A stretch of DNA of 64,000 nt from an uncultured Desulfurococcaceae archaeon (lineage in GTDB: Archaea; Thermoproteota; Thermoprotei_A; Sulfolobales; NBVN01), in NCBI GenBank assembly GCA_964655125.1, contig CAZZLT010000046.1, positions 82,159 to 146,158 of the forward strand, in the 5' to 3' direction. The notes under the pieces were generated by a model. That model saw only the letters and a program-made list of their open reading frames with translations. It searched no databases and was not told where the DNA came from. Of this stretch, positions 40,880 through 42,179 are shown piece after piece. Both the position numbers and the translations under genes were made by a program. Every line of letters begins with the position of its first letter. The stretch's first letter is position 1.

Positions 40880-41055
40880 CCTAACACCTACTAGAGATAC
40901 ATTAACAACAGCTATTAAATATTATCAATTATCAATACTAATACTATAAACTATTGAGAACTCATCACAAAGACATCCCATACCCCTCTCTCAAAGACTT
41001 AACATCAGTACTCTCTAAGTGAGGTTATAGTTATTATATCCGATGATATTAAAGC

Positions 41056-41062
41056 TTATAAA
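41056..41062 (+). promoter_or_regulatory. TATA box (TTATAAA, purine-rich AAAG upstream) for the tRNA transcript
   Basis: Lies about 25-40 nt upstream of the leader helix and the tRNA 5' end. The spacing would put the transcription start near 41081-41087. Confidence 0.4.
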
Positions 41063-41128
41063 GTATTAAGTGTAATAAGAGGTTGGGAGGCCAAAGCAGC
41101 GGGGTGGGGTAGCCAGGGAGCCCGCGGG

Positions 41129-41158
41129 AGGTAGGTTGCAGTAGTACCTACCCGCGAA
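41129..41158 (+). other. tRNA intron 1 (30 nt, position 30/31)
   Basis: Central helix CGCG:CGCG (41123-26 / 41153-56), bulges GGA and AAG, 7-bp inner helix 41130-36 / 41146-52, no outer helix. Confidence 0.8.
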
Positions 41159-41165
41159 GCTCATA

Positions 41166-41192
41166 TAATACAGTACTGGCTGTGTTGGAGAG
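41166..41192 (+). other. tRNA intron 2 (27 nt, canonical position 37/38)
   Basis: Anticodon stem as outer helix, CTCA:GGAG central helix (3 pairs plus 1 mismatch), bulges TAT and AGA, 6-bp inner helix 41167-72 / 41181-86. Confidence 0.85.
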
Positions 41193-41214
41193 ACCCCGAG
41201 GTCGGTGGTTCAAA

Positions 41215-41254
41215 ACGAGGTAGCCTGAGTAACTGTTGGGCTACCTCGTGAGAG
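41215..41254 (+). other. tRNA intron 3 (40 nt, T-loop position 59/60)
   Basis: T stem as outer helix, TTCA:TGAG central helix, bulges AAA and AGT, 10-bp inner hairpin 41216-25 / 41239-48. Confidence 0.88.
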
Positions 41255-41333
41255 TCCACCCCCCGCTACCAGAAGCCTCCCACCATCACCTCAGTTATAA
41301 ATTAATTAAGTTAATAATTATGAAGTAATTCAG

Positions 41334-42179
41334 GTGGGTTCATATATGATTAACGAACTTCATTTCGGGACTGCAGGAATACCTAACAGTACTATTAAGC
41401 CGTCAACCTTAAATGGTGTGATTAGAGTTCATGAGTTAGGTCTTAATGCCATGGAAATAGAATTTGTGAGGGGTGTTAGGATGAGTGTAGAGTCAGCGTT
41501 AGAGATTCGTAAAGTATCTGTAGAGTTAGGTGTTATATTGACTGTCCACGCACCATACTATATAAACTTACTCTCCTCGGAGGATTCTAAAGTTAATGCA
41601 TCTATTAAGAGAATCGTAGAATCTGCTAGGGTAGGTTCTAAAGCTGGTGCTTGGTCATTAGTATTCCACCCAGGATATTACGGGAAGTTAAAGTCTGAGG
41701 AATGTATAGAACATGTCAGGAAGATCCTGAAGAAAGTGGTTAAAGAGTTAATTGATGAGGGTATTAAGATGTGGATAAGACCTGAAGTTATGGGCGGTTT
41801 AGCTGAATTCGGATCTGTTGAGGAGGTAGTTGCAGTTACTGAGGGTTTAGACTACACATTACCATGTATAGACTTCGCTCACATATATGCTAGGAGCTTA
41901 GGTAAGGTAAATAATTATGATGCATTCAAAAACATTTTAGAATATATAGAGAGTAGATTAGGTAGTGAAGCATTAAAAAACTCACATATCCATATGTCCG
42001 GTATAGAGTATGGGGAGAGAGGAGAGGTAAAACATACTAATCTTAATGAATCTAAAATAAATTATGTAGATTTAATGAGAGTTCTTAAGGACTTTAAAGT
42101 AGTTGGTGTCCTCATTAGCGAATCACCAAATTTAGAGGATGATGCATTACTGATGATGCAGACATATAGGAGTATCTAG
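41334..42179 (+). CDS. AP-endonuclease family 2 / xylose-isomerase-like TIM-barrel protein (endonuclease IV-like)
   Basis: FGTAGIP start, VHAPYYINL, FHPG pattern; 281 aa. Confidence 0.6.
   Translation: MGSYMINELHFGTAGIPNSTIKPSTLNGVIRVHELGLNAMEIEFVRGVRMSVESALEIRKVSVELGVILTVHAPYYINLLSSEDSKVNASIKRIVESARVGSKAGAWSLVFHPGYYGKLKSEECIEHVRKILKKVVKELIDEGIKMWIRPEVMGGLAEFGSVEEVVAVTEGLDYTLPCIDFAHIYARSLGKVNNYDAFKNILEYIESRLGSEALKNSHIHMSGIEYGERGEVKHTNLNESKINYVDLMRVLKDFKVVGVLISESPNLEDDALLMMQTYRSI

Follow-up and report, generated by a model that had tools for sequence, protein, structure and literature searches.

Can an archaeal initiator transfer RNA (tRNA) gene be functional when it is cut into four exons, one of them only 7 nucleotides (nt) long, and where would its introns have come from? 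The question is raised by a locus in a 64,000-nt stretch of contig CAZZLT010000046.1 from an uncultured Desulfurococcaceae archaeon (the window, by which the whole stretch analysed is meant). An initial annotation, made from the letters alone, had read positions 41098-41271 as an initiator tRNA-Met gene split by three introns. Comparison with orthologous loci supports this reading: 41098-41271 (plus strand) very probably encodes a functional initiator tRNA-Met(CAU) in an uncultured hyperthermophile of the Desulfurococcaceae (Great Boiling Spring), and contains three short bulge-helix-bulge (BHB) introns at tRNA positions 30/31, 37/38 and 59/60. The locus is a multi-intron archaeal tRNA gene, a known kind, and stands at the published maximum of three introns, in an initiator tRNA and in a less usual lineage. 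Its parts are as follows.

41055-41062, plus strand: TATA-like box CTTATAAA, about 36-43 nt upstream of A1; putative archaeal promoter, with transcription predicted to start near 41085
41085-41091, plus strand: 5' leader strand GGGAGGC of an outer helix, pairing with 41275-41281
41092-41097, plus strand: conserved spacer CAAAGC
41098-41128, plus strand: exon 1, 31 nt, tRNA positions 1-30 (5' strand of the acceptor stem, D arm, and anticodon-stem bases C27-G30)
41129-41158, plus strand: intron 30/31, 30 nt, relaxed HBh' type
41159-41165, plus strand: exon 2, 7 nt, GCUCAUA, positions 31-37, holding the CAU anticodon
41166-41192, plus strand: intron 37/38 (the canonical position), 27 nt, mismatched H helix and 8-base-pair (bp) inner helix
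41193-41214, plus strand: exon 3, 22 nt, positions 38-59
41215-41254, plus strand: intron 59/60 in the T loop, 40 nt, canonical hBHBh' type
41255-41271, plus strand: exon 4, 17 nt, positions 60-76, with the encoded CCA
41275-41281, plus strand: 3' trailer strand GCCTCCC, followed by unpaired ACCA at 41282-41285

Mature tRNA and its initiator identity

Removal of 41129-41158, 41166-41192 and 41215-41254 and joining of the four exons gives exactly the 77-mer of the initial annotation, whose coordinates proved exact. ARAGORN folds the spliced 77-mer into a perfect tRNA-Met(CAT) cloverleaf with the arms that had been described, namely a 7-bp acceptor stem with A1:U72, a 4-bp D stem (GGGU/GCCC), a 5-bp anticodon stem (CGGGG/CCCCG) and a T arm GGUGG-UUCAAAU-CCACC with a 5-bp T stem, together with the encoded CCA. 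The D-loop holds one extra nucleotide and linear base 31 is Sprinzl position 30; because of this shift in numbering the intron sites are 30/31, 37/38 and 59/60, in agreement with the sites first proposed and with natural alleles that precisely lack each intron (see below). The four exons are collinear on one strand within 174 nt, which is the arrangement of neither a split nor a permuted gene, and the 174-nt precursor folds with a z-score of -5.4 against shuffled sequences (0/200 shuffles as good). An A/T-rich motif, either CTTATAAA or CTTAAAA, occurs at an equal distance upstream in all orthologous loci, and CTTATAAA would represent the archaeal promoter element.

In Archaea and eukaryotes, initiator tRNAs are marked by the pair A1:U72 and by three consecutive G:C pairs at 29-31:39-41. 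Both are found in the spliced product (G29-G31:C39-C41 for the second) along with the CAU anticodon, which bears out the initiator identity originally assigned. The anticodon taken alone would leave room for an elongator tRNA-Met, or for a tRNA-Ile2 whose CAU is modified later, since CAU is common to three archaeal tRNA species and the ARAGORN label is just 'Met'. However, archaeal elongator Met and Ile2 tRNAs normally start with G1:C72, and with A1:U72 and all three G:C pairs in place either of these identities is extremely improbable.

Comparison of orthologous loci

About 30 orthologous loci of uncultured Desulfurococcaceae, 20 of them added by a metagenome scan with exon 1, were parsed by exact exon matches in which D-loop position 20 alone was allowed to vary (loci are designated by L numbers). 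The syntenic loci L006-L012 carry the same gene, with invariant exon columns and intervening sequences that vary in both sequence and length. Across the whole set the exons are invariant, D-loop position 20 excepted; in the eight closest orthologues they are 100% identical and the introns average about 50-60% identity. The recurrence of this exon set in about 30 independent loci is far beyond chance. Each intron site is independently empty, occupied by a mini-intron (12-46 nt) or occupied by a large intron (283-1552 nt), and the precise absences are distributed as follows.

Intron 30/31 precisely absent: L013, L014, L086, L090, L099, L100, L102 and L019
Intron 37/38 precisely absent: L015, L092, L093 and L019
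Intron 59/60 precisely absent: L013, L092, L093, L100, L101 and L019

Because natural alleles precisely lack each intron, all six predicted splice junctions are confirmed at the level of genomic sequence. Zestosphaera tikiterensis (L019) has a fully intron-less gene adjoining the same proteasome-alpha gene, and the only departures of this gene from the predicted spliced product are one substitution and one additional base, both in the D-loop. It scores 65.1 bits on the Rfam tRNA model, the gathering score being 29, and in this way provides by proxy the covariance-model check that the initial annotation had suggested for the spliced sequence. Three metagenome or metagenome-assembled genome (MAG) contigs (L016, L017 and L105) stop exactly at the boundary between exon 1 and the intron; these ends are probably assembly breaks at a polymorphic intron.

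Perfect exons could still belong to a decaying pseudogene or a redundant copy if an intron-less initiator gene elsewhere in the genome did the work. ARAGORN and Rfam detect no tRNA whatever in the window, and the copy count is confined to its 64 kilobases (kb), so a second initiator gene elsewhere is conceivable. Nevertheless, the exons have remained invariant while the proteasome-alpha protein diverged to 69-86% amino acid identity and the introns and flanks diverged freely, and because of this difference the exons appear to be under strong purifying selection. The BHB motifs have likewise been retained through compensatory changes. Neither exon 1 nor the T-arm/acceptor segment has a second copy within the 64-kb window; the metagenome scan with exon 1 returned an intron-less gene in 0/20 matches, and the samples with the window-type allele (L087, L094 and L098) gave one match each. 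A pseudogene or redundant copy is, on this evidence, very unlikely, and the locus is best read as the working initiator gene.

BHB motifs of the three introns

The introns were checked against the BHB rule, which asks for a 4-bp central helix (H), bulges of 3 nt with the cut behind their second nucleotide, and helices on either side; all introns of all orthologues conform to it. Intron 59/60 has the T stem GGUGG/CCACC as its outer helix (h), UUCA/UGAG as H, and bulges AA↓A and AG↓U (the arrow marks the cut). In intron 37/38, H is CUCA/GGAG, with 3 bp and an A35.G mismatch, and the bulges are UA↓U and AG↓A; the anticodon stem serves as outer helix and is present solely after removal of intron 30/31. 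Intron 30/31 combines H = CGCG/CGCG and bulges GG↓A and AA↓G with a 7-bp inner helix, GGUAGGU/ACCUACC. The full hBHBh' form is seen for 59/60, and 30/31 is of the HBh' form. This geometry matches the grading given at the outset, in which 59/60 was called textbook, 37/38 near-canonical and 30/31 relaxed.

Formal covariation counts were made for the 59/60 and 30/31 introns. In 14 distinct sequences of intron 59/60, 94.7% of the cells are paired, against 37-48% in slid controls; compensatory double changes occur in 9/10 pairs of the inner helix, and 0/500 shuffles reach the observed values. For intron 30/31 (11 distinct sequences) the corresponding figure is 89.9%, against 23-53% in slid controls, with double changes in 4/5 inner pairs. 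The predicted BHB motifs of 59/60 and 30/31 are thus upheld by compensatory substitutions.

Some structural features count against the proposed reading of the locus. Intron 30/31 lacks a contiguous outer helix and intron 37/38 has the mismatched H helix, and both would depend on an enzyme of relaxed specificity. Moreover, the BHB conformers are not the minimum-free-energy folds and cost 2-8 kcal/mol in the nearest-neighbour model; all that the minimum-free-energy fold contains at 30/31 is GAG(C)/(G)CUC, a helix of 3-4 bp that is displaced relative to H.

A fourth intron in relatives

In L007-L012, L088, L097 and other loci, A38 and C39 are not contiguous between GCUCAUA and CCCGAGG. The invariant mature tRNA is obtained by one parse only, in which an added intron of 12-18 nt stands at 39/40 and leaves a 2-nt exon, AC. 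The genes for which coordinates within their loci were recorded are these.

L007, 1721-1919, minus strand: four-intron gene
L008, 1735-1924, minus strand: four-intron gene
L009, 2656-2832, minus strand: four-intron gene
L010, 1247-1442, minus strand: four-intron gene
L011, 1730-1924, minus strand: four-intron gene
L012, 1731-1924, minus strand: four-intron gene

Further four-intron genes were found in L088, L097, L096, L101 and L104. The BHB at 39/40 is canonical, with outer helix CUCGG/CCGAG and H = GGAC/GUCC. Because the 3' end of intron 37/38 is needed to form this BHB, intron 39/40 must be removed before intron 37/38. The motif is 98% paired and nearly invariant, so that it is supported by conservation and not by covariation. 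A three-intron parse of L007-L012, with a single intron between A37 and C40, was also considered and rejected: position 39 would then vary (U, G, A or C opposite G31) with all other exon positions invariant, whereas the four-intron parse yields an identical mature tRNA and a canonical BHB.

In reviews up to 2021, three introns are the maximum for an archaeal tRNA (PMC4033280, PMC8450103), and the four-intron initiator genes of these relatives exceed it. The nearest published parallel is the multi-intron tRNA genes of Thermoproteales such as Pyrobaculum, Thermofilum and Caldivirga (Sugahara et al. 2007, 2008, as reviewed in PMC4033280 and PMC8450103), in which some motifs are likewise relaxed, some form solely after another intron leaves, and the maximum is three. 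The initial annotation had pointed to this class, and the window gene, with three introns, does fall into it. Unlike the Thermoproteales cases, its host belongs to the Desulfurococcaceae, the gene is that of the initiator tRNA, and close orthologues (L007-L012, L088, L097 and others) need four introns.

Proposed splicing and its order

In archaeal tRNA splicing, introns are cleaved out by the splicing endonuclease, exons are ligated by RtcB, and the ends are matured by RNase P and 3' trimming. By analogy, transcription of the window gene would begin at about 41085, downstream of the TATA box, and the precursor would fold so that each intron-exon junction presents two 3-nt bulges separated by a 4-bp helix. 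The splicing endonuclease would cut after the second nucleotide of each bulge, RtcB would seal the exons, and RNase P and 3' processing would trim the ends. In Crenarchaeota this endonuclease is heterotetrameric and tolerates relaxed motifs (PMC4033280).

The excision of intron 59/60 would be independent of the other two. The H helix of intron 30/31 takes up C25-G28 and excludes the anticodon-stem pairs 27:43 and 28:42; because it competes with the anticodon stem, which is needed as the outer helix of 37/38, intron 30/31 probably comes out before 37/38. Constraint folding at 80 °C is consistent with this order: accessibility of the 37/38 BHB rises about 10-fold once 30/31 is gone, and 59/60 behaves independently. 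The modelled signal is weak, no BHB being the favoured conformer. Each cut would also have to be sealed before the neighbouring intron is cut, because exon 2 is 7 nt long and the anticodon exon would otherwise be released. If the gene is the sole copy, all translation initiation hangs on three splicing reactions carried out in order, and in sister species on four; one of them cuts within the G:C stack that defines initiator identity, and the anticodon is carried on the 7-nt exon.

The outer leader-trailer helix

The whole gene is enclosed by a 7-bp helix between leader and trailer, like a second acceptor stem. The complementarity is found in 18/18 distinct interrupted orthologous sequences and includes one compensatory A:U to G:C switch (GGGAGGC/GCCTCCC to GGGGGGC/GCCCCCC); an unpaired [A/G]CCA follows the trailer in every locus having a 3' end. 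The intron-less gene of Zestosphaera is without the trailer half. A role as a BHB for end processing was rejected, as there is no 4-bp helix between 3-nt bulges and the 3' spacer measures 1-9 nt. More speculatively, the outer helix and NCCA may act as a precursor clamp or end protection that evolved with the heavy intron load.

Large introns and the origin of the mini-introns

In several orthologues the sites that carry mini-introns in the window are occupied by large introns, most of which contain an open reading frame (ORF).

Site 30/31 (L015, L092, L093): large intron of about 1.3-1.5 kb; ORF of about 400 amino acids, antisense to the tRNA
Site 37/38 (L013, L014, L086, L090, L100, L106): large intron of about 1.2 kb; ORF of about 350 amino acids, sense
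Site 59/60 (L020, L086, L096, L104, L106): large intron of 0.7-1.0 kb; ORF of about 210 amino acids, sense
Site 59/60 (L102): large intron of 283 nt, no ORF

With the Pfam LAGLIDADG_3 model, for which the cut-off is 22.5 bits, the 59/60 ORF scores 41.3 bits and the 37/38 ORF 25.7 bits, both above it. The 30/31 ORF has two LAGLIDADG-like motifs, LGLALSDGS and LAGVIDGDG. The 59/60 ORF belongs to a family of 20 clusters among 5.8 billion proteins, none of them named, and one member, 52% identical, is likewise located at 59/60 of an initiator tRNA. No relative of this ORF and no match to exon 1 was found in viral contigs. A group I intron reading of the large introns was rejected, as seven loci gave no Rfam match to a group I model. 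Distant homologues of the 59/60 intron endonuclease (about 41% identity) were also seen as free-standing genes at L109 1501-2130 and L110 759-1388 in an unrelated organism, where ordinary tRNA genes without introns form an array around them.

Mini and large introns at one site have common termini, for example AGATGCGGGG...CCCCGATCCGCGAA in both the 30-nt intron of L091 and the 1548-nt intron of L093. Intermediate states of ORF decay also occur: the ORF of L014 is frame-broken, the 955-nt intron of L104 retains a 96-amino-acid remnant, and the 283-nt intron of L102 has no ORF. Finally, loci with near-identical leaders and trailers differ in their intron complements, with lengths of 1548, 0, 0 and 0 nt in L093, 31, 46, 16 and 718 nt in L096, 31, 46, 16 and 0 nt in L101, and 30, 46, 16 and 955 nt in L104. 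Such differences suggest recent, population-level gain and loss of introns.

From these comparisons, the three mini-introns would most likely be ORF-less survivors of mobile introns, homologous to the large LAGLIDADG-ORF introns at the same sites. The window introns (30, 27 and 40 nt) have no ORF and are at most derivatives of homing-endonuclease BHB introns, not members of that class. The chances seem to us about even that they are the shrunken remains of mobile LAGLIDADG BHB introns with the initiator tRNA gene as their specific target, at 30/31, 37/38 and 59/60. Several results count against such an origin. The 30/31 ORF reaches only 20.2 bits with LAGLIDADG_3, below the cut-off. Searches of PDB sequences, run for each of the three kinds of intron ORF both singly and in profile form, yielded no significant match; the top-ranking entries were one named V-ATPase (E = 0.09) and the PI-SceI homing endonuclease, by motif only (E = 0.45). 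As to the direction of evolution, loss of the ORF from large introns and invasion of older mini-introns by an ORF both fit.

Homing-endonuclease genes can invade peripheral loops of pre-existing introns. The mini-introns may have arisen independently of the ORF introns, for instance by intron transposition as proposed for Thermoproteales, with endonuclease genes invading later in some lineages. The ORFs always lie towards the apex of the inner helix, where a mini-intron has its loop, and the 30/31 ORF is antisense to the tRNA, as expected of an independent gene. On the other hand, the intermediate decay states (L014, L104 and L102) fit a cycle of invasion, decay and shrinkage, and whole-intron differences between loci with near-identical flanks point to recent mobility. 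An independent origin is conceivable but rather doubtful, and it bears on origin alone, leaving the identity of the window locus unaffected.

Two comparable systems lie outside the tRNA genes of Archaea. In Bacteria, the homing endonuclease I-Ssp6803I is reportedly encoded by a group I intron of a cyanobacterial tRNA-fMet gene, as Bonocora and Shub are said to have described in 2001. There too, a mobile intron with an endonuclease gene targets an initiator tRNA gene near the anticodon. That intron, however, is a self-splicing ribozyme with a PD-(D/E)XK enzyme, whereas no group I model matches here and excision would be protein-dependent via BHB motifs. The cyanobacterial tRNA-fMet group I intron is cited in PMC3218864. 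In Archaea, BHB introns of ribosomal RNA (rRNA) genes encode LAGLIDADG homing endonucleases such as I-DmoI and I-PorI (PMC4496867, PMC6125680). Like these, the BHB introns of the relatives, which measure 0.7-1.5 kb, carry LAGLIDADG_3-type ORFs and vary in presence between near-identical strains; unlike them, they reside in a tRNA gene and not an rRNA gene, and those of the window are 27-40 nt long and lack an ORF. No description of LAGLIDADG genes in archaeal tRNA introns was found in the literature, which was incompletely covered, and a prior description is possible. The mechanism of tRNA intron gain and transposition has been called unknown in reviews (PMC4090602). If true, an origin from mobile introns would be the first sign of DNA-level homing as a means by which archaeal tRNA introns spread, and the same process would yield four-intron genes with a 2-nt exon.

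One relative carries the gene in two separate pieces.

L022, from 2801 downward, minus strand: 5' piece of the split gene
L022, 1681-1754, plus strand: 3' piece of the split gene

Here the initiator gene is broken at 30/31, and its two parts, separated by about 1 kb, converge from opposite strands. The intron stubs are complementary at 18/19 positions and together restore the BHB of 30/31 in trans, and the intervening DNA contains LAGLIDADG-like ORF remnants. The split gene is probably the outcome of an inversion inside a large intron; an assembly artefact is a possible explanation as well. Other disrupted initiator genes include the permuted tRNA-iMet of Thermofilum pendens, disrupted at 59/60 and with an intron at 37/38, and the tRNA-iMet of Nanoarchaeum equitans, split at 37/38 (PMC3218864). 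They are affected at the same hot positions as the window gene and their pieces are joined via BHB motifs. In contrast to them, the window exons are collinear on 174 nt and would be spliced in cis, and L022 is truly split, at 30/31. If the introns are mobile, inversion within a large intron would create split tRNA genes, and this would favour the view that split genes arose late and from introns. One orthologous gene thus displays every state of disruption, being intact, interrupted by one to four introns, and provided with mini, ORF-bearing or decaying introns, or split onto opposite strands. The initiator gene is therefore a natural system for testing the gain and loss of tRNA introns and the intron origin of split genes.

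Detection by annotation tools

The raw unspliced locus gives no ARAGORN match, with or without the intron mode, and Rfam at the gathering threshold over the whole window gives no match at the tRNA locus, as had been foreseen for default tools. When Rfam was run at E values up to 10 on 40900-41500, noise alone was returned (snR78, TtnuCD22 and HgcG). In this lineage the initiator tRNA gene is invisible to ARAGORN and Rfam/Infernal, and genomes or MAGs annotated with these tools would seem to be without an initiator tRNA. The archaeal mode of tRNAscan-SE 2.0 performs an iterative search for up to three BHB introns (PMC8450103) and might pick up the gene.

Host lineage and genomic context

The closest genomes to the host contig are MAGs of uncultured Desulfurococcaceae or 'Sulfolobales', with 97%, 84-86% and 69-75% amino acid identity, Zestosphaera tikiterensis belonging to the last group. 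By these comparisons the host lineage is assigned to the Desulfurococcaceae and not to the Thermoproteales.

Within the 64 kb, GC content of at least 60% per 60-nt window is reached in only two stretches, both inside the tRNA locus, so that the description of the locus as the only strongly GC-rich island is accurate; the window mean is 36% (standard deviation 6.5%) and the flanks of the locus have 31-32%. ARAGORN and Rfam found no other tRNA or known RNA family in the 64-kb window. Below threshold, a C/D-box small nucleolar RNA-like match to snR78 lies at 41289-41370 on the minus strand (21 bits, E = 0.93; gathering score 48). The match extends into the beginning of the AP-endonuclease gene downstream and is most probably noise. 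The genes for Rrp41, Rrp4, SBDS and proteasome alpha are on the minus strand upstream of the tRNA locus, and the AP_endonuc_2 gene is downstream on the plus strand. The proteasome-alpha protein that flanks the tRNA gene has an identical copy on metagenome contigs from Great Boiling Spring (Nevada).

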